From an uncultured Clostridia bacterium (GTDB lineage Bacteria > Bacillota > Clostridia > Oscillospirales > Acutalibacteraceae), in contig CALAFJ010000017.1 in NCBI GenBank assembly GCA_937891195.1, positions 6,770-70,769 on the forward strand: DNA of 64,000 nucleotides, in the 5' to 3' direction. Of the stretch, positions 5,041 through 28,868 are shown piece after piece; the stretch's first letter is position 1, and every line of letters starts with the position of its first letter. The notes beneath the pieces were generated by a model. It did no database searches. It saw only the letters and a list, made by a program, of their open reading frames with translations, and was not told the DNA's origin. A program made the position numbers and the translations under genes.

Positions 5041-5655
5041 ATGGACTTTATGGATATTTCCAGGCGTCGTGTGACCACCCGGCAGTTTGCTCCCGTTCCC
5101 GTGGAACAGGAAAAGCTGGACAAAATTCTGGAAGCCGGACGGTGGGCGCCTACGGCGGTCAACGCCCAGCCCCAGCGGATACTCGTATTGAACACCCGCG
5201 AGAGTTTGGAAAAGGTGCGGGCGTTCTGCACCTTCAACTATGATCCCCGGTATGCCGCATTAGACAGCACCTGCGACGATAAGGAACACGAACAGTGCGT
5301 GTATTATTACGGTGCGCCGCTGGTGCTGCTGGTTTGCTATGACCGGGATGCTTGCTGGAAGCACCCGGAAAGCGGAGAGCCCAGCGGCTCCACGGATGCG
5401 ACCATCGTTTCCACCCACATGATGCTGGAGGCTGCCAGCATCGGTCTCGGCACGGTATGGATCAGCTATTTTGATAAGCAGAAAGCCCGTGATCTGCTGC
5501 ATCTGCCGGAAAGCTGGGAGATCAACAACATGATCTACATCGGTTACCCGGCAGAAAATTTTGCGCCCAACCCGAAAATGAGCGGAAAACGGTACCCGCT
5601 GTCCCATTCCGTGTGGTATAATTCCCCGGGAGGTGCGCAACATGACGAAGTATGA
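5041..5655 (+). CDS. Nitroreductase family protein
   Basis: The translation ISRRRVTTRQFAPVPVEQEKLDKILEAGRWAPTAVNAQPQRILV...YYGAPLVLLVCYD is the nitroreductase signature. Confidence 0.85.
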   Translation: MDFMDISRRRVTTRQFAPVPVEQEKLDKILEAGRWAPTAVNAQPQRILVLNTRESLEKVRAFCTFNYDPRYAALDSTCDDKEHEQCVYYYGAPLVLLVCYDRDACWKHPESGEPSGSTDATIVSTHMMLEAASIGLGTVWISYFDKQKARDLLHLPESWEINNMIYIGYPAENFAPNPKMSGKRYPLSHSVWYNSPGGAQHDEV

Positions 5656-6250
5656 CTATCTGAAACGGCTGGTGGAGCATATGCATTCCGCCACGGTTGC
5701 CACCATCGGCGCAGACGGACACCCCCAGACCCGCGTGATCGACATGATGCTGTGGGACGAACAGGGCGTATATTTTCTCACCGCCAGAGGTAAGGCGTTC
5801 TATGCGCAGCTCATGGAGCAGGGCTATATCGCTCTGTCCGCTGTCAGAGACAAACGTTCAATCTCCTTGCGCGGCAAAATCCGAAACATCGGCAGCGAAA
5901 AGCTGGACGAGATATTCGCGAAAAACACGTATATGCAGTCTATCTACCCCGGGGATACCCGCAGCGCGCTGGAGGTGTTCTGCCTGTACGAGGCGGAGGG
6001 GGAATACTTCGACATCTGCGATCCGGCGCACATCGTCCGGGACGGTTTCTCCATCGGCAAGGAGGGGCAGGAAACGCCGGGCTACTACGTGGGCGATGGC
6101 TGTATCGGCTGCCAGCGATGCTACGCCGTTTGTCCGCAGAAGTGCATCGACATCACCAGAAAGCCGGTAGTCATTGACCGGCACCATTGTCTCCATTGCG
6201 GACGGTGCGCGGAGACCTGCCCCAGGCGGGTCATTGAAAAGAGGACTTGA
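5642..6250 (+). CDS. PNPOx-like flavoprotein fused to a 2x[4Fe-4S] ferredoxin domain
   Basis: The N-terminal split-barrel-like region reads ATVATIGADGHPQTRVIDMMLW. The C-terminus carries CIGCQRCYAVCP and CLHCGRCAETCP cluster motifs. The ATG at 5642 lies 8 nt after GGGAGG. Confidence 0.75.
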   Translation: MTKYDYLKRLVEHMHSATVATIGADGHPQTRVIDMMLWDEQGVYFLTARGKAFYAQLMEQGYIALSAVRDKRSISLRGKIRNIGSEKLDEIFAKNTYMQSIYPGDTRSALEVFCLYEAEGEYFDICDPAHIVRDGFSIGKEGQETPGYYVGDGCIGCQRCYAVCPQKCIDITRKPVVIDRHHCLHCGRCAETCPRRVIEKRT

Positions 6251-23095: not shown

Positions 23096-23367
23096 GCCAG
23101 ATATAACGACGGGGCTGTCGCAAGTGAGAGATCACGGGCGACAGCCCCGTTGCTGCTATGCCGCCGGTTGCGCCGGGGATTTGTGCCGCAGGATCATCGG
23201 CGGTGCGGGCATTCTGCGCCTTTTCGTCCTCGGCACAAAGGGCGGAAAGGTGCGGTGGGTGCGGGCTTGCGTCTGCGGGTATGTCGGTAGCCATGGCGAC
23301 GGAATACTGCTACAATGGGCAGGCGGCGCCGCGCAAAGCCGTTTGGCGCGGTTTGGACGGTGCCGCC

Positions 23368-24237
23368 ATGAAAAAATGGAAGGCGGTATACGGGACTGTG
23401 GAAAGAGTGTGGACGGCCGCCGCGACGGCGGCGTATTGGCAGCAACTGATATCGGAGGAAAAAAGCCCCCGGACCATCGAAAAATACCGGCGGGACATTG
23501 GGGTGTTCCGGCGATATGTCGGAAACCGACCCGTCACCAAAGCGCTGGTGTTGGCCTACAAAGCGGAGCTGCAGGCCCGCTATGCCGCCCGCAGCGTCAA
23601 TTCCATGCTGGCAAGCATCAACAGCCTGTTCAGCTTTTTGGGCTGGCACGACCTGCGGGTGAAAGCGCTGAAATGGCAGCAGCCGGTGTTCTGTCCGGAA
23701 GAAAAGGAGCTGACACGGGCGGAATACACCCGGCTGTGCCGGACGGCGGAGCGCAACCGCAACGAGCGGCTCGCGCTCGTCCTGCAAACCATTTGCGGCA
23801 CGGGCATCCGGGTCAGCGAGCTGCAATATATCACCGTGGAGGCGGTAAAACGCAGCGAGGCGGTGGTGAACTGCAAGGCAAAAACCCGGTCGGTGTTTAT
23901 CGTCAAGGAACTGAAACAAAAATTGCTCCGCTATGCAGCGGAGCGGGGGATAAGAACCGGGATGATCTTTGTGACCCGCACGGGGAAACCGGTAAGCCGC
24001 ACCAACATCTGGCGGGAGATGAAAGCCTTGTGCGCCGAGGCGCACGTCGATCCGCAAAAGGTGTTCCCGCATAACCTGCGCCATCTGTTCGCCCGGGTGT
24101 TTTATGGCATCGAAAAGGACATCGCCAAGCTGGCCGATATCCTCGGACACAGCAGCATCAACACCACCCGCATTTATATCATCTCCACCGGCCGGGAACA
24201 TCGGAAGCAGCTGGAAACAATGCGGCTGATATTATGA
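23368..24237 (+). CDS. Small tyrosine site-specific recombinase (XerC/D-like, no arm-binding domain)
   Basis: A core-binding domain (SPRTIEKYRRDIGVFRRYV) is present. The catalytic residues are present: R in GTGIRVSEL, HNLRH (HxxR), and GHSSINTTRIY (H..Y). The start is chosen at MKKWKAV (23368). Confidence 0.87.
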   Translation: MKKWKAVYGTVERVWTAAATAAYWQQLISEEKSPRTIEKYRRDIGVFRRYVGNRPVTKALVLAYKAELQARYAARSVNSMLASINSLFSFLGWHDLRVKALKWQQPVFCPEEKELTRAEYTRLCRTAERNRNERLALVLQTICGTGIRVSELQYITVEAVKRSEAVVNCKAKTRSVFIVKELKQKLLRYAAERGIRTGMIFVTRTGKPVSRTNIWREMKALCAEAHVDPQKVFPHNLRHLFARVFYGIEKDIAKLADILGHSSINTTRIYIISTGREHRKQLETMRLIL

Positions 24238-24263
24238 AAAAAGCCACCGAAACCGGCGGCAGA

Positions 24264-24283
24264 AACATAATTCACATTATGTT
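24264..24283. repeat. Left inverted repeat AACATAATTCACATTATGTT
   Basis: This is the exact reverse complement of 24515-24534. It has 8-bp palindromic arms around an asymmetric TCAC centre. Confidence 0.85.
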
Positions 24284-24329
24284 ATCAATAAGCCGGGACA
24301 AATATCCAAAATATCCCAGCAGCAACTGT

Positions 24330-24358
24330 ATTTTAGCACACCTACGCGCAAAAGTAAA
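24330..24358 (-). promoter_or_regulatory. Candidate sigma-A promoter inside the invertible segment, currently facing left
   Basis: The minus strand reads TTTACT (24358-24353), a 17-nt spacer, then TGC-TAAAAT (24338-24330), which is an extended -10. Confidence 0.45.
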
Positions 24359-24514
24359 GTCTTTTATAATCGAATTTCCCGCTTTTGCGTAAAATCGGCA
24401 ATCTGAATAAGCCCTTTCGGCGGTATCGTCAACGATTTTACCGAGAGAGCTTGTTTTTTGCTGCCTGAATTTCCTGGACACCATCGGAAAATCGTCCGCC
24501 CGTTCGGCGTTTAC

Positions 24515-24534
24515 AACATAATGTGAATTATGTT
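24515..24534. repeat. Right inverted repeat AACATAATGTGAATTATGTT
   Basis: This is the exact reverse complement of 24264-24283, with centre GTGA. Confidence 0.85.
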
Positions 24535-24551: not shown

Positions 24552-24680
24552 ATGGAAATGATGTATTGCCCAGTTTGCGGGAAGGTGTTTGATCCGGTTT
24601 TTGTGCAATTCTTAGACAATGGAAACTCTGCTTGTCCGCAGTGTGTGGTGGGTGAGCAAGAACGGGATTGTAAGAAGTAG
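24552..24680 (+). CDS. 42-aa zinc-ribbon peptide (CPVC...CPQC), absent from the supplied ORF track
   Basis: My own translation gives MEMMYCPVCGKVFDPVFVQFLDNGNSACPQCVVGEQERDCKK. A GAGGGGG RBS lies 7-8 nt upstream. It is the first ORF after the right inverted repeat. Confidence 0.5.
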   Translation: MEMMYCPVCGKVFDPVFVQFLDNGNSACPQCVVGEQERDCKK

Positions 24681-24733
24681 ACGTAAAATCTGTCGGGTAT
24701 GCTTGATTCAAAGTTTGAAAGGGGTGAATAGCA

Positions 24734-25375
24734 ATGAACATAAATACTGGAAAAACTAAGAAGTCAACATTGCTGAAATGGAAATCTGTAATGAGAAGGT
24801 TTTTTTCAAAGCACGAGTATATTCCGTATTTGACAGTTTTATTTTTATTTCCGCTTTTGTTAAACATCATTTTTCTTTTAATTCCAACCTCCTTTTTTCG
24901 GATAGAAGAGGGGGAAATGCTTTCATTCTACGGCGTTGCAGCGGGCATTTTTTCCTCGTATATTACCTATCGTAACGCTGTAAGAAAGGAAAAGGAAGAA
25001 AAGAACAGCAGACTTCGACCTTTCATTGGACTGACAGCCAAAAAGGTATTGGACGATATTGTAGAAATTGAACTGACAAGGTATGGGGATGCTGTGGTAA
25101 GAGATGTTTTTCTCTATGACATTCCATTGACGGATATCTTGGAGAATAAATTAAGGCGGAGAGTTTCGTTTCGTGACGACAAAAAAGATGGCGAAACACT
25201 ACATATGTCGCTTTGTGGCTATGATGAGGATCTGATAGACCAAGGAGATGGACTTCCAAAATATATAACGGTATCTTGTTGTGACAGAGAAAATCGACTT
25301 TGGGTACTTGAATATAGAAAACAAACAGATGGAAATGGTTCTATATACATGTTGGCTGAGTCATTTTTAGGATAG
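24734..25375 (+). CDS. Hypothetical membrane protein (2 TM segments plus a soluble C-terminal domain)
   Basis: The hydrophobic segments are YLTVLFLFPLLLNIIFLLIP and LSFYGVAAGIFSSYITY. An AAAGGGGTG RBS is present. The gene is AT-rich and I recognise no family. Confidence 0.6.
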   Translation: MNINTGKTKKSTLLKWKSVMRRFFSKHEYIPYLTVLFLFPLLLNIIFLLIPTSFFRIEEGEMLSFYGVAAGIFSSYITYRNAVRKEKEEKNSRLRPFIGLTAKKVLDDIVEIELTRYGDAVVRDVFLYDIPLTDILENKLRRRVSFRDDKKDGETLHMSLCGYDEDLIDQGDGLPKYITVSCCDRENRLWVLEYRKQTDGNGSIYMLAESFLG

Positions 25376-25385
25376 GAGGGATATT

Positions 25386-27026
25386 ATGAAAAAGGTATTC
25401 GCCATATTTATTTCTTTGCTGATTGTGACCATGTCAATTCCGTTGGGTGGGTTTCAACTGCTTATAAATGCGGCTACTGCCAGCGGTACAACCGGCGATT
25501 GTACGTGGACATTGGATGGAACAGTACTGACTATAAGCGGTAACGGCACAATGCGCAATTATCAGTGGAACGGGAACAATCTTTCACATACACCATGGAG
25601 AGGAAGTATGACGAAAGTTATTATTAAAGACGGTGTAACGAGTATAGGCAATGCCGTTTTTTCCGGTTGTACGGGGCTTACAAGTGTAACGATACCTGGC
25701 AGTGTTACAAATATAGGGGAATATGCTTTTTACGGTTGTACGGGGCTTGTGAGCATAACCATACCCGATAGTATTGTAAGTATAGGTAAATGGGCTTTTA
25801 GTGGTTGCAGAATCAAAGAACTAAATGTTGCGGAAGGCTCAAAAAAGGTGGTCAGCCAAATAATTGTGTGCGAAAGCACACTGGAAAGTGTAACGATGCC
25901 GGACAGCGTTACATGTATAGATGAGGGCGCTTTTACTGATTGTACAGGACTTACAAGTGTAACAATACCGGATAGTGTTACAAGTATAGGCGATAGGGCT
26001 TTTTCCGGCTGCACAGGGCTCAGAAATGTAACGATACCGGATGGCGTTACAAGTGTAAGATATAGGACTTTCTTCGGTTGCACAGGCCTTACGAGCATTA
26101 CCATTCCGGACAGTGTGACTAGCATAGGCAAGGGTGCTTTTGCCAATTGCACAAGACTGAAAAGAGTAGTGATACCAAGCAGGGTAACCAGTATAGACGA
26201 GGCGGCCTTCGCCAACTGCTCGGAACTGAAAAGCGTAATGATGCTGAACGGCGTAACTGGTATAGGCAAGGACGCTTTTCTCGGGTGTACAGGACTGGCG
26301 AGTGTTACTATTCCGGACAGTGTTACAAGCATAAGCGATAAAGCTTTTTCCGGCTGTACAGGACTTACAAGCATAACTATTCCGAACAGCGTAACCAGCG
26401 TAGGCGAGGGCGCTTTTTCCGGCTGTACAGGATTGGCGAGTGTTACTATTCCAGACAGCATTACAAGTATAAGCGATAAGGCTTTTTCTAGTTGCACAGG
26501 ACTTACAAGCATAACTATTCCGAATAGTGTAACCAACATAGGCGAGGATGCTTTTTCCGGCTGTACAGGACTGATAAGCATCACTATCCCGGACGGCGCG
26601 ATCAGCGTAGGCAAGGGCGCGTTTTCCAACTGCACGGGACTGACAAGCGTAACGATACCGGACAGCGTGACAGGACTTAAATGCAGTGTCTTTGATGGCT
26701 GCAATAAACTGAAAGATGTTTACTTTGAAGGAAGTCAGCAAGAATGGGACAATTTTAGGGTGTTTTCGAATACAGTTTCATCTAATCCATTAATGTACGC
26801 ATTTATCCACTTTAATTCAAAATGTATAAATCACCCCGGTAATCTTGATGGCAATTACGTTATCACCGATGCGGATGCGGTATATCTGCTGATGCATACG
26901 TTTTTCCCGGATGACTACCCGGTCAATCAAGATTGTGACTTTGACGGCGATGGAAAAGTGACAGATGCGGATGCCGTATACTTGCTGATGTATACATTTT
27001 TCCCGGATGAATACCCAATACAGTGA
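25386..27026 (+). CDS. Secreted BspA-type leucine-rich-repeat protein with a C-terminal dockerin-like module
   Basis: A signal peptide is followed by about 17 tandem ~23-aa repeats (IPDSVTSIG..AF.GCTGLTSVT). The C-terminus has two EF-hand-like segments, NLDGNYVITDADAVYLLMHTFF and DFDGDGKVTDADAVYLLMYTFF. Confidence 0.85.
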   Translation: MKKVFAIFISLLIVTMSIPLGGFQLLINAATASGTTGDCTWTLDGTVLTISGNGTMRNYQWNGNNLSHTPWRGSMTKVIIKDGVTSIGNAVFSGCTGLTSVTIPGSVTNIGEYAFYGCTGLVSITIPDSIVSIGKWAFSGCRIKELNVAEGSKKVVSQIIVCESTLESVTMPDSVTCIDEGAFTDCTGLTSVTIPDSVTSIGDRAFSGCTGLRNVTIPDGVTSVRYRTFFGCTGLTSITIPDSVTSIGKGAFANCTRLKRVVIPSRVTSIDEAAFANCSELKSVMMLNGVTGIGKDAFLGCTGLASVTIPDSVTSISDKAFSGCTGLTSITIPNSVTSVGEGAFSGCTGLASVTIPDSITSISDKAFSSCTGLTSITIPNSVTNIGEDAFSGCTGLISITIPDGAISVGKGAFSNCTGLTSVTIPDSVTGLKCSVFDGCNKLKDVYFEGSQQEWDNFRVFSNTVSSNPLMYAFIHFNSKCINHPGNLDGNYVITDADAVYLLMHTFFPDDYPVNQDCDFDGDGKVTDADAVYLLMYTFFPDEYPIQ

Positions 27027-27042
27027 AAAGGGAGTTTTGAAA

Positions 27043-28812
27043 ATGAAAAAGGTAATCAGTTTACTCTTCTGCGTCTGCTTTATGCTTATCCTCTGCGTTC
27101 CTGCTTATGCTGCTGGAACGGCGACACTTAACGAAAACGCATCGACAACGGACGGTTCAACCGTAGAATTTATCCTGAATGTCAGCGGTTGCGGCGACGC
27201 AACGTCTGTTGCCGTTGCGGTGAACTTTGACGATGCTTTTGAACTTGTTTCGGCGACGTGGCTGAAAAACGGTTCGCTGAACAGGTTTGACACCGCAACG
27301 AACAAGGGCGTTCTGGGAGGATTGAATTCTCCCAATATCAACGGGGATGTTTTCAAGCTGGTTCTGAAAGCCAAGACCGCTTCTGCCAATGCGCATACGG
27401 TCAGCGTGAATTTTATTGCCAGAAACGGTTCCAATGATATTATGAATGTCACCCCCACAAAGACGGTGAAAATTGCCTGCAGCTCACATAATTACTCGGC
27501 TTACACCAAACTGAACGACAGCCAGCACCAGCGCACCTGCTCCGCCTGCGGCTATGTGGAAACCTCCGGACATACCTGGAACGGCGGTACGGTCGTCAAG
27601 GCGGCCACCTGCAAGGAGACCGGCACAAAGGAGTATGCCTGCACTGCGTGCGGGGCGAAAAAGACGGAAACGGTCGCCAAAACCAACGCTCACACCTGGG
27701 GGGATTGGCACGTCACCAAGCAGCCCTCCTGCACGGCCCCCGGCACCACCGCCAAGACCTGCTCCGTCTGCGGGAAAACCGAAAATCAGACCGTGAACGC
27801 CACCGGACATTCCATGGGTGGCTGGAGCCAGACCAAGGCGCCCACCTGCACCGAAAAGGGCGAGGAGCAGCGCAGCTGCGGCAAGTGCGGCTACAAAGAG
27901 ACAAAAGCGGTGGATGCGCTGGGACACAGCTTTTCCAACCCGACGGTGACGAAAGAGCCTACCTGCACGGAAACGGGCGTGGAGACCGGTAAGTGCAGCC
28001 GCTGCGGACAGACGACCACCAACACGCTGAAAGCGAAGGGGCACAAATTCGGCGCCTGGGCGGATACCAAGGCGGCTACCTGCACCGAGGGCGGCACCCA
28101 GGAGCGGAAGTGCTCTGCCTGCGGCGCGGCGGAAAGCCGCACCACCAAGGCGCTGGGACACGATTTCGAGAATCCCACCATTGTGAAAGAGGCCACCATC
28201 AGCAGCACCGGTCTGAAAGAGGGCAAGTGCAAGCGCTGTGGTGAGACCACCAGCGAGGTGATTCCCTGCACGGCGAAGGACGACGCCACGGGCGCAATCT
28301 TTGAGGCGGATGCGGGGGTGTTCACGGAAGGCACGACCCTGTCCGTGGAGGAGCTGGGGCAGGATAACCCCTCCTATGCGTCGGCGGAGAATGTGCTGAA
28401 GGACACCTGCAAGGACTTTAAGCTGTACGATGTGTCTGCCTCCCGGAACGGTGCGGATGTACAGCCGAATGGCGAGTTGACCGTGACCTTGCCGATTCCG
28501 GATGGATTCGGGACGGATGTGGCGCTGTATCTGCTGTCCAGCGACGGCACCGCCGAGCCGATCGAGGTCACCGTGAGCGCGGACGGGAAAACCCTGACCG
28601 CCAAGCTGACCAAGCTGGGCGAGCTGGCTATCGGTAAGCTGGGCAACGGCGTGTCGGATGACGTGCCCGGAGATGTTTCGACGGATGCGCCGACTGCCGA
28701 GGAACCGGCCGGGGGGAAAACGTCGGTGGTATTATACATTGTGCTGGCGGCGATCGTGCTGGCCGCCGGCGGGGCGGTCCTCGTGGTGGTGATCCGCAAA
28801 AAAGCCAAATAA
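27043..28812 (+). CDS. Membrane-anchored surface protein: cohesin-like N-terminal module, Cys-rich ~39-aa repeats and a C-terminal TM anchor
   Basis: A signal peptide (CVPAYA) is followed by a ~120-aa beta-rich module (GSTVEFILNVSG...VAVAVNFDDAFELVS...GDVFKLVLKAK). Then come 6-7 repeats of the form GH.[WF]...T..P[TS]CTE.G....C..CG. The C-terminus is VVLYIVLAAIVLAAGGAVLVVVIRKKAK. Confidence 0.75.
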   Translation: MKKVISLLFCVCFMLILCVPAYAAGTATLNENASTTDGSTVEFILNVSGCGDATSVAVAVNFDDAFELVSATWLKNGSLNRFDTATNKGVLGGLNSPNINGDVFKLVLKAKTASANAHTVSVNFIARNGSNDIMNVTPTKTVKIACSSHNYSAYTKLNDSQHQRTCSACGYVETSGHTWNGGTVVKAATCKETGTKEYACTACGAKKTETVAKTNAHTWGDWHVTKQPSCTAPGTTAKTCSVCGKTENQTVNATGHSMGGWSQTKAPTCTEKGEEQRSCGKCGYKETKAVDALGHSFSNPTVTKEPTCTETGVETGKCSRCGQTTTNTLKAKGHKFGAWADTKAATCTEGGTQERKCSACGAAESRTTKALGHDFENPTIVKEATISSTGLKEGKCKRCGETTSEVIPCTAKDDATGAIFEADAGVFTEGTTLSVEELGQDNPSYASAENVLKDTCKDFKLYDVSASRNGADVQPNGELTVTLPIPDGFGTDVALYLLSSDGTAEPIEVTVSADGKTLTAKLTKLGELAIGKLGNGVSDDVPGDVSTDAPTAEEPAGGKTSVVLYIVLAAIVLAAGGAVLVVVIRKKAK

Positions 28813-28826
28813 CGAACGTTCCTGAC

Positions 28827-28868
28827 AGCAGTCGGTGTGCTGATTTGCAGCGCACCGGCTGCTTTTTA
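28827..28868 (+). terminator. Rho-independent terminator after the surface-protein operon
   Basis: An AGCAGTCGGTGTGC / GCGCACCGGCTGCT stem with two wobble or mismatch positions is followed by TTTTTAT. Confidence 0.55.

Follow-up and report, generated by a model that had tools for sequence, protein, structure and literature searches.

The question raised by this locus is whether a short bacterial gene cluster can encode both a surface protein and the device that holds it on the cell, with the two being turned on and off together. The cluster lies at 24552-28812 of a 64,000-nt stretch of DNA (the window, in whose numbering all coordinates are given) and comprises four closely packed open reading frames (ORFs) on the plus strand, at 24552-24680, 24734-25375, 25386-27026 and 27043-28812, with intergenic gaps of 53, 10 and 16 nt; this is the gene order, and these are the boundaries, given in an earlier note on the same DNA. 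That note took the third product for a BspA-type leucine-rich repeat (LRR) protein ending in a dockerin and the fourth for a membrane-anchored protein with a cohesin-like module, and proposed that the two form a self-contained, two-component surface display unit under the control of an upstream invertible switch. We consider it likely that the host is an uncultured Oscillospirales/Ruminococcaceae-like gut bacterium and that the operon is a phase-variable cohesin-dockerin surface display unit.

Predicted dockerin and cohesin modules in adjacent genes

The third gene (25386-27026, plus strand) encodes the presumed cargo, a 546-aa secreted protein with a signal-peptide-like segment at its N-terminus and a BspA-type LRR region that LRR_5 (PF13306) matches in four stretches at E=1.4e-127. 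Its last 63 aa (26835-27023, plus strand) form two calcium-loop/helix segments, read from the sequence as NLDGNYVITDAD followed by AVYLLMHTFF and DFDGDGKVTDAD followed by AVYLLMYTFF. The two are 70% identical to each other, and each shows the features of the duplicated dockerin segment of about 22 residues, with a 12-residue calcium loop (D/N at positions 1, 3 and 5; D at 12) and then a helix; we refer to them by the motif YLLMxTFFPEDYP of their subtype. Taken singly, the window tail scores 11.6 bits against Dockerin_1 (PF00404; cut-off 22.9, E=0.3-0.8), missing the gathering score, and phmmer against the PDB yields marginal dockerin matches (E=0.045). The tail has 48 homologue clusters, however, with the common, twice repeated signature GDxDGDxxVTDADAVYLLMHTFFPEDYP; Dockerin_1 is matched by 30 of 31 close homologues at E<=1 (best E=7.5e-8), and the family profile finds solved dockerins in the PDB (best E=1.7e-7), the top 16 matches all being dockerins. 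An AlphaFold2 (AF2) model of the module has a predicted local distance difference test score (pLDDT) of 90.7 and helices at 12-23 and 44-55, and its top 29 Foldseek matches are dockerins from cohesin-dockerin complexes, with a root mean square deviation of 2.1-2.9 Å for most. EF-hand families also match the tail homologues. Judged by family profile and predicted fold, the tail of the LRR protein is a true but divergent dockerin.

The fourth gene (27043-28812, plus strand) has the start also picked by public gene callers, with GGGAG as ribosome-binding site 8 nt 5' of its ATG. From its ORF and hydropathy, the 589-aa product is predicted to be a type I membrane anchor protein, that is, a monovalent anchoring scaffoldin, composed in order of a signal peptide, the cohesin, 39-aa Cys/His repeats, a beta-rich C-terminal domain, an acidic linker, a transmembrane (TM) helix and the tail RKKAK. 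The cohesin assignment concerns aa 24-146 (27112-27480, plus strand), a 123-aa all-beta module recognised by family profile, AF2 and Foldseek. The module itself gives no match to Pfam Cohesin (PF00963) even at E<=10, whether searched within the whole protein or as isolated sub-regions, NCBIfam likewise returns no cohesin for it, and phmmer of the single sequence against the PDB returns nothing. Among its 19 close homologues, 8 of 13 (53-68% identity) do match Pfam Cohesin, with a best E of 1.2e-6. An exhaustive profile search extends the family to 612 representative clusters; 37 of 103 scanned representatives match Pfam Cohesin (best E=3.2e-26) and 20 carry Dockerin_1 (E=3.7e-16 reached). The only PDB match of the family profile is the cohesin 2xdh of A. 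fulgidus, at E=0.11.

The AF2 model of the module (pLDDT 93.7, predicted template modelling score 0.84) has 11 strands and is all-beta. Its top four Foldseek matches are the cohesins 5n5p, 2w1n and 2xdh (template modelling score 0.71-0.77, E=2.5e-7 to 1.5e-6), from R. flavefaciens ScaB Coh5, C. perfringens GH84C and A. fulgidus, and the modelled beta-sandwich (jelly-roll) superposes on these solved cohesins; collagen-binding and Ig-like folds come further down, the collagen-binding ones scoring at most 0.59. By the same kind of evidence as for the tail, the N-terminal module of the anchor is a true but divergent cohesin. Of the checks that the earlier note had proposed, the Pfam Dockerin_1 and Cohesin searches came out against it for the window copies themselves, which fall below the cut-off or do not match at all, whereas structure prediction came out in its favour: the single-module AF2 models match dockerins and cohesins, not unrelated folds. 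Since homologues match the Pfam models that miss the window copies, we regard the latter as divergent members of the two families rather than as non-members.

Downstream of the cohesin, seven CxxCG units, six of them full 39-aa H...C...CxxCG repeats, occupy 27490-28290 (plus strand; GC 0.626). The full repeat has the form H-x-W/F...T-C-T-x-x-G...C-x-x-C-G...G-H, in which four residues per unit could bind zinc, and it is not covered by any Pfam or NCBIfam family. The repeats are kept in related anchor genes and presumably form a zinc-binding stalk that spans the cell wall. They also occur in the cargo proteins of three related loci (L004, L005 and L020). A hydropathy scan places the single C-terminal TM helix at aa 556-586 (28708-28800, plus strand), directly before the basic RKKAK. 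Cys-rich repeats and a lone C-terminal anchor had been read from the sequence before, and both are there. In the best 150 of the 612 cohesin-family representatives, 71 proteins end in a TM helix and none has LPxTG; 24 have several cohesins, and 35 also have a dockerin detected by the same family profile (E<=1e-3), which makes them adaptor-scaffoldin-like. By prediction from sequence, the window pair has the properties of an anchoring scaffoldin and its cargo: the cohesin protein is fixed by a TM helix, and the dockerin protein has a signal peptide.

The dockerin gene precedes the cohesin gene in related loci

We scanned genomes with the cohesin profile and found 21 related loci, all in gut metagenome-assembled genomes (MAGs) from animals, belonging to Oscillospiraceae, Acutalibacteraceae or Ruminococcaceae-like Clostridia; a metagenome scan added only two. 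The cohesin opens the anchor gene in 16 of the genome loci (L001-L015 and L020) and in both metagenome loci (L022 and L023 in the locus list). In all 18 of these, the ORF immediately upstream ends in a YLLMxTFFPEDYP dockerin (E=1e-30 to 1e-36) and either overlaps the cohesin gene or has its stop no more than about 20 nt away, although cohesin identity across these loci ranges from 44 to 93%. The cargo preceding the dockerin differs from locus to locus, and includes LRR arrays, Cys-repeat proteins, Listeria-Bacteroides-type repeats and an esterase. Because the adjacency is constant and the cargo varies, dockerin and neighbouring cohesin appear to have been inherited jointly while the cargo was swapped. 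The divergence of the cohesins correlates with that of the neighbouring dockerins (Mantel r=0.67; 0 of 5000 permutations reach this r). The two dockerin segments are 59-85% identical within each protein across the loci, as in dual-binding-mode dockerins, and the window has no cohesin or dockerin of these families besides this pair. Comparative genomics thus supports the pairing of the neighbouring modules, and we infer that the cohesin of the window physically binds its dockerin.

In L001, the closest relative, nucleotide similarity is confined to the dockerin, cohesin and Cys repeats, where L001:3-647 and window 26862-28238 are 87% identical, and the cargo has Listeria-Bacteroides-type repeats in place of the LRRs. 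This comparison indicates that the cargo was replaced, with a breakpoint just 5' of the dockerin.

Some loci depart from the one-to-one layout. L008:3-10651 contains a partial ORF, then three tandem complete genes with the dockerin subtype, then one monovalent cohesin gene lacking a TM helix; the first complete gene encodes CE2_N, GDSL lipase/esterase, CBM_4_9 and DUF4886 domains, a carbohydrate-active cargo. L020 has a dockerin gene on either side of the cohesin gene. In L016:5813-11434 and in L017-L019, all from rabbit-gut MAGs, cohesin and Cys repeats are found inside proteins of up to 1874 aa with fn3 and Big_2 domains, and there is no dockerin gene nearby; these proteins may be a version in which cargo and anchor are covalently fused.

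The cargo does not consist mainly of carbohydrate-active enzymes, as that of a cellulosome would: the window protein presents an LRR array without a catalytic domain, and only L008 carries an esterase. With non-enzymatic cargo, the system is therefore cellulosome-like in its assembly principle and is not a cellulosome. The LRR array of the window (25886-26672) has a 69-nt (23-aa) unit in 11.4 copies and is presumably a ligand-binding adhesin. The protein scores 157 bits against the HupY/LrrG adhesin equivalog, whose cut-off is 1250, and so is not an orthologue of that adhesin. Inside the array, a 138-nt unit of two LRRs is present in 2.3 copies with 86% identity at 26262-26573, indicating a recent internal duplication.

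A candidate invertible promoter upstream of the operon

The gene preceding the operon (23203-24237, plus strand) encodes a tyrosine site-specific recombinase, a candidate invertase of 344 aa as publicly called, in an ORF open from 23158. It matches Phage_integrase (PF00589) at E=1.8e-22 and Phage_int_SAM_1 at E=1.3e-8, and in NCBIfam it is XerA/XerD-like, under the equivalog cut-offs. Between this gene and the first ORF of the operon lie two 25-nt inverted-repeat arms, 92% complementary and 221 nt apart. The left arm (24264-24288) contains the core ACATAAT-TCAC-ATTATGT at 24265-24282, and the right arm (24510-24534) the core ACATAAT-GTGA-ATTATGT at 24516-24533. The half-sites ACATAAT and ATTATGT are palindromic, and the spacers TCAC (left) and GTGA (right) are reverse-complementary; with the spacer inverted between the cores, recombination in this arrangement would give inversion of the 221-nt segment between the arms (24289-24509). 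Within the 64 kb the core motif of the switch, ACATAATNNNNATTATGT, is present two times; the expectation from 100 shuffles is 0.

Promoter assignment is by consensus scan only, and a single promoter-like site turns up inside the segment, on its minus strand (24358->24330; TTTACT-17-TAAAAT and a TG upstream). The right repeat and the first ORF are 17 nt apart, so a promoter of the operon must sit inside the segment or before it. As assembled, the promoter-like site points away from the operon and toward a terminator-like hairpin just outside the left repeat (24243-24260, minus strand), which would stop leftward transcription from the switch promoter; the assembled state would therefore be OFF.

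The window is identical to European Nucleotide Archive contig ERZ27300197:k119_53936, and in a further sample, ERZ808299, the assembly also runs through the switch, with the segment oriented as in the window. We sought the ON orientation, whose junction would read, for example, GGCGGCAGAAACATAATTCACATTATGTTGTAAACGCCGAACGG, in contigs with identical LRR, recombinase and 213-aa proteins (the last being the product of the second ORF); each of these contigs either breaks off at the repeat or has the orientation seen in the window. Contig DJEF01000059.1 of GCA_002431285.1, an independently made assembly of this strain, matches the window at 100% identity and stops at window 24515 (L025 position 1), within the right repeat and a single base short of its core. 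The break suggests that both orientations were present in the assembled material, with which it is compatible without proving it. From this layout we infer both the inversion itself and the position of the promoter.

Candidate switches at the same position in related loci

A switch of the same design is found in L007. The C-terminus of a homologous recombinase (E=4e-20) precedes it, the half-sites are ACATAAT and ATTATGT as in the window, and the spacers are CAGC and GCTG, which differ from those of the window but are again reverse-complementary to each other, so that they co-vary. An outward promoter-like site (250->222) has 10/12 consensus matches with a TG, and a minus-strand terminator (169->154) is at the equivalent place. 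The operon that follows (L007:1-8590) has genes for a Wzy_C (O-antigen-ligase-like) membrane protein and a penicillin-binding protein transpeptidase-domain protein before the LRR-dockerin and cohesin genes. The switch postulated in the earlier note thus has in its favour the recombinase, the repeats, the promoter-like site and the likeness to L007; the inverted orientation was not found.

Three other loci have a recombinase of a different kind directly 5' of the cassette. In L003:6995-7723, L005:34-813 and L013:~5400-6167 this is a serine recombinase of the Resolvase family (PF00239, E~1e-25), and just after it come two palindromic sites, CAAAAGGT-AC/GT-ACCTTTTG, 73-123 nt apart. The position is that of the tyrosine-type switch and the recombinase class is unrelated; we consider this arrangement another kind of putative invertible switch. 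When the interiors of these serine-type switches were compared for flipped copies, L003 and L013 were collinear and L005 was too divergent to call. Two loci without a recombinase share an inverted repeat, TTAGTTATTTATCACTAAT / ATTAGTGATATATAACTAA with 32 nt between the arms, located 5' of the cassette and next to XRE-like genes (L009:6590-6659 and L011:6406-6493); this repeat may act as a hairpin or an operator.

Accessory genes, terminator and base composition

The first two ORFs of the operon lie outside the conserved cassette, because no homologues of either were found in the related loci or in the protein database; those loci have different small genes at this position. In L013:6186-6569, for example, a HEPN pEK499_p136-family gene (E=2e-19) lies between the serine-type switch and the LRR-dockerin gene. 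The first ORF of the window (24552-24680, plus strand) would encode a 42-aa zinc-ribbon-like CxxC...CxxC peptide whose reality is uncertain: Zn_ribbon_8 matches at E=1.9e-4, under the cut-off, and only one public assembly (L029) annotates it as a gene. The second (24734-25375, plus strand) encodes a 213-aa orphan membrane protein with no Pfam or NCBIfam family, which matches itself alone among 5.8 billion protein clusters. It had been described as having two TM segments; in our hydropathy scan one hydrophobic segment is strong (aa 29-57) and the other weaker.

The operon is closed by an intrinsic terminator at 28827-28863 (plus strand; a 16-bp stem with 10 GC pairs, then a T run), the single terminator 3' of the operon. 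Rfam and tRNA scans found no Rfam family and no tRNA gene in the region.

Segment GC values bear out the mosaic of AT-rich and high-GC parts noticed earlier. The recombinase gene (0.598), the Cys repeats and the C-terminal part of the anchor gene (0.625) are host-like at 0.60-0.63, in flanks of 0.56-0.60, and the stretch between them, from switch to cohesin, is at 0.37-0.48 (switch 0.432; 213-aa gene 0.369, the lowest of the region; LRR-dockerin gene 0.449; cohesin module 0.482). This suggests that the middle part, from switch to cohesin, was replaced by DNA of a lower-GC relative. The L001 locus has a similar mosaic pattern. We rejected LRR amino-acid usage alone as the source of the AT-richness: the 213-aa gene, which has no LRRs, and the switch are AT-rich too, and GC is at the host level in the recombinase and the Cys repeats, so that LRR usage is not the whole cause.

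Discussion

We favour a phase-variable cohesin-dockerin surface display operon as the best explanation of this locus, and think it has a good chance of being correct. The tyrosine recombinase would flip the promoter-bearing 221-nt segment between its 25-nt repeats, the assembled state being OFF and insulated by the terminator. Once flipped, the segment would drive one transcript over the zinc-ribbon ORF, the orphan membrane protein, the LRR-dockerin gene and the cohesin anchor gene, ending at 28827-28863. Both large proteins would be exported by Sec; the anchor would be held in the membrane by its C-terminal helix and would project its N-terminal cohesin outward on the Cys/His stalk, and the symmetric dockerin of the cargo would bind that cohesin in a calcium-dependent manner, so that the LRR array is displayed on the surface.

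A number of observations weigh against this explanation or narrow it. The Mantel correlation is confounded by shared phylogeny, adjacency in cellulosome clusters does not always equal pairing, and the modules of the window are themselves under the Pfam thresholds. The cohesin family includes multi-cohesin and adaptor proteins, and dockerin proteins other than the LRR cargo may be bound by the anchor in addition to it or in its place. The window promoter is a 9/12 consensus match, the segment is oriented alike in both assemblies that read through the switch, and inversion was not directly seen. Most related loci with upstream DNA have no recombinase, so that switching is not universal to the cassette.

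It is unlikely, in our judgement, that the two modules are real and yet not mutual partners, their adjacency reflecting co-regulation within a larger cellulosome-like network in which the anchor cohesin would hold adaptor scaffoldins or enzymes from elsewhere and the LRR dockerin would plug into some other scaffoldin. Such a network would agree with the breadth of the cohesin family (612 clusters, and in its best 150 the 24 multi-cohesin and 35 cohesin-plus-dockerin proteins), with the presence of the YLLMxTFFPEDYP subtype on many unrelated proteins, and with loci such as L008, where three dockerin genes share one cohesin, and L020, with dockerin genes on both sides. It accords poorly with an adjacency that is kept in 18 of 18 loci across 44-93% cohesin identity and survives replacement of the cargo, with correlated divergence of the two modules, and with a 64-kb window that has a single cohesin and a single dockerin of these families; the neighbours cttA and scaE of R. 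flavefaciens are likewise a cognate pair. The pairing claimed in the earlier note is supported by the 18 adjacencies, and its word "self-contained" is probably too narrow, because adaptor and multi-cohesin relatives exist and the dockerin subtype is found on so many proteins. We give very little credence to the more radical idea that the tail is an EF-hand-like, calcium-binding stabiliser without a cohesin partner and the beta module a generic Ig-like or adhesin domain. The failure of the window copies at Pfam thresholds, the EF-hand matches of tail homologues and the collagen-binding and Ig-like folds lower among the fold matches all speak for it; the top folds are nevertheless cohesins (0.71-0.77, against at most 0.59 for collagen-binding folds) and the top 29 tail matches all dockerins, family members reach E=3e-26 with Cohesin and E=3.7e-16 with Dockerin_1, and the strict pairing in neighbouring genes would be left unexplained.

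The display operon could also be real and its upstream element no switch. In that case the recombinase would be an integrase or Xer-type enzyme that came with a horizontally acquired AT-rich island, its attachment or dif-like sites would be the repeats, and expression of the operon would be constitutive or otherwise controlled. A GC of 0.37-0.48 from switch to cohesin in a genome of about 0.58-0.60, the affinity of the recombinase to XerA/XerD models (though under their cut-offs), the single orientation in every switch-spanning assembly, and the palindromic nature of each repeat core, like one recombinase-binding site, are all compatible with an island. The cores, however, differ solely by a reverse-complemented spacer (TCAC/GTGA), which predicts inversion and not excision; they are 221 nt apart between the recombinase and the first ORF, with no room for a promoter after the right repeat; and L007 repeats the layout with a co-varying spacer (CAGC/GCTG) and different first genes, while three other loci have a serine invertase with an inverted-repeat pair at the same position. 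Furthermore, no tRNA gene is nearby, the recombinase gene is at host GC (0.598), and the independent contig ends in the right repeat, one base before the core. On balance we find the island improbable and retain the phase-variable display operon.

The nearest functional analogue, by likeness of arrangement, is CttA bound to ScaE: in the DocG:CohE complex, the dockerin of the adhesion protein CttA is bound by the cell-anchored monovalent cohesin ScaE (PMC7456326). The cttA-scaE pair of the R. flavefaciens and R. champanellensis sca cluster (PDB 4iu3/4iu2) consists of an X-dockerin adhesion protein and a cell-bound protein with one cohesin. As in the window, a non-enzymatic protein ending in a dockerin is thus encoded beside a single-cohesin cell-bound protein, and the complex tethers an adhesion module to the cell surface, as we propose for the window; Foldseek also lists the ScaE cohesin as a match to the window cohesin (4iu3_A, E=8e-5). 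The entry 4iu3 is the complex of the R. flavefaciens cognate pair. The two systems differ in several respects. Sortase links ScaE to the wall through LPXTG, whereas the window anchor has a TM helix and, unlike ScaE, a stalk of Cys/His repeats; CttA has an X module before its dockerin and binds cellulose, whereas the window cargo has no X module and bears a BspA-type LRR array. We know of no DNA-inversion switch described for the sca cluster.

LRR-dockerin proteins are themselves not new: Rincon et al. (2010, PMC2930009) counted 28 LRR modules in dockerin proteins of the R. flavefaciens FD-1 cellulosome, some of them encoded by genes in tandem, and these proteins have the signal peptide-LRR-dockerin architecture of the window cargo. 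The FD-1 dockerins fall into groups 1-6 and plug into the ScaA/ScaB/ScaC network, whereas the window dockerin has the YLLMxTFFPEDYP subtype and its own adjacent anchor cohesin, features by which, rather than by residue-by-residue comparison, we set it apart from the FD-1 groups. TM-anchored single-cohesin scaffoldins of human and rumen ruminococci have been found by AlphaFold (bioRxiv 10.64898/2026.02.05.704116). In the passages of that preprint that we searched, these share with the window divergent cohesins missed by sequence methods and C-terminal TM anchors, modules with LRR and Listeria-Bacteroides repeats occur and are taken to favour adhesion, as in the window family, and cohesins are sorted into structural groups, of which 4, 5 and 7 are named; neither an invertible switch nor a conserved dockerin-cargo/cohesin-anchor cassette was found in those passages. 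Already described, then, are both LRR-dockerin proteins and single cohesins with a membrane anchor.

Invertible-promoter phase variation is known from Clostridioides difficile cwpV/RecV, from the capsule and fimbrial invertons of Bacteroides and from E. coli fimS. In these systems, as in the window, a recombinase gene lies beside short inverted repeats that bracket a promoter upstream of surface-protein genes. The window differs from them in that the controlled genes are a cohesin-dockerin pair, in that two unrelated recombinase classes (tyrosine and serine) are at the same position in different lineages, and in that its inversion is predicted from sequence layout. Our literature search found no conserved cargo/anchor cassette with the YLLMxTFFPEDYP dockerin subtype, and no paper that ties dockerins to phase variation or invertons. 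The coupling to DNA inversion and the conserved, cargo-swapping cassette therefore appear not to have been described previously. The earlier note had said that using a cohesin-dockerin pair for a phase-variable LRR adhesin would be unusual; the coupling to a switch does appear undescribed, and the LRR-dockerin architecture as such is known (PMC2930009).

More tentatively, we suggest a "plug-and-display" principle in uncultured gut Oscillospirales, which we regard as quite possible, if somewhat short of probable: a dockerin of the YLLMxTFFPEDYP subtype and its own TM-anchored cohesin would travel together, the cargo ahead of the dockerin would be swapped freely, and tyrosine or serine switches would have been acquired independently in different lineages, giving a convergent on/off decoration for host or substrate adhesion and immune evasion outside polysaccharide degradation.

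Cohesin-dockerin assembly has so far been known almost solely for polysaccharide-degrading complexes. Here the same assembly principle appears in a compact, exchangeable display cassette for non-enzymatic, adhesin-like cargo, which in several lineages is seemingly toggled by DNA inversion. Because divergent members escape the Pfam thresholds, cohesin-dockerin systems are probably under-counted. If binding and inversion are true, this would be the first link of cohesin-dockerin display with phase variation, and the small natural cohesin-dockerin pair with its membrane anchor would be of use for engineered surface display. The recurrence of the cargo-plus-anchor cassette suggests an on/off, plug-in surface decoration, which, if true, would add a mechanism of surface variation to abundant uncultured gut Clostridia.

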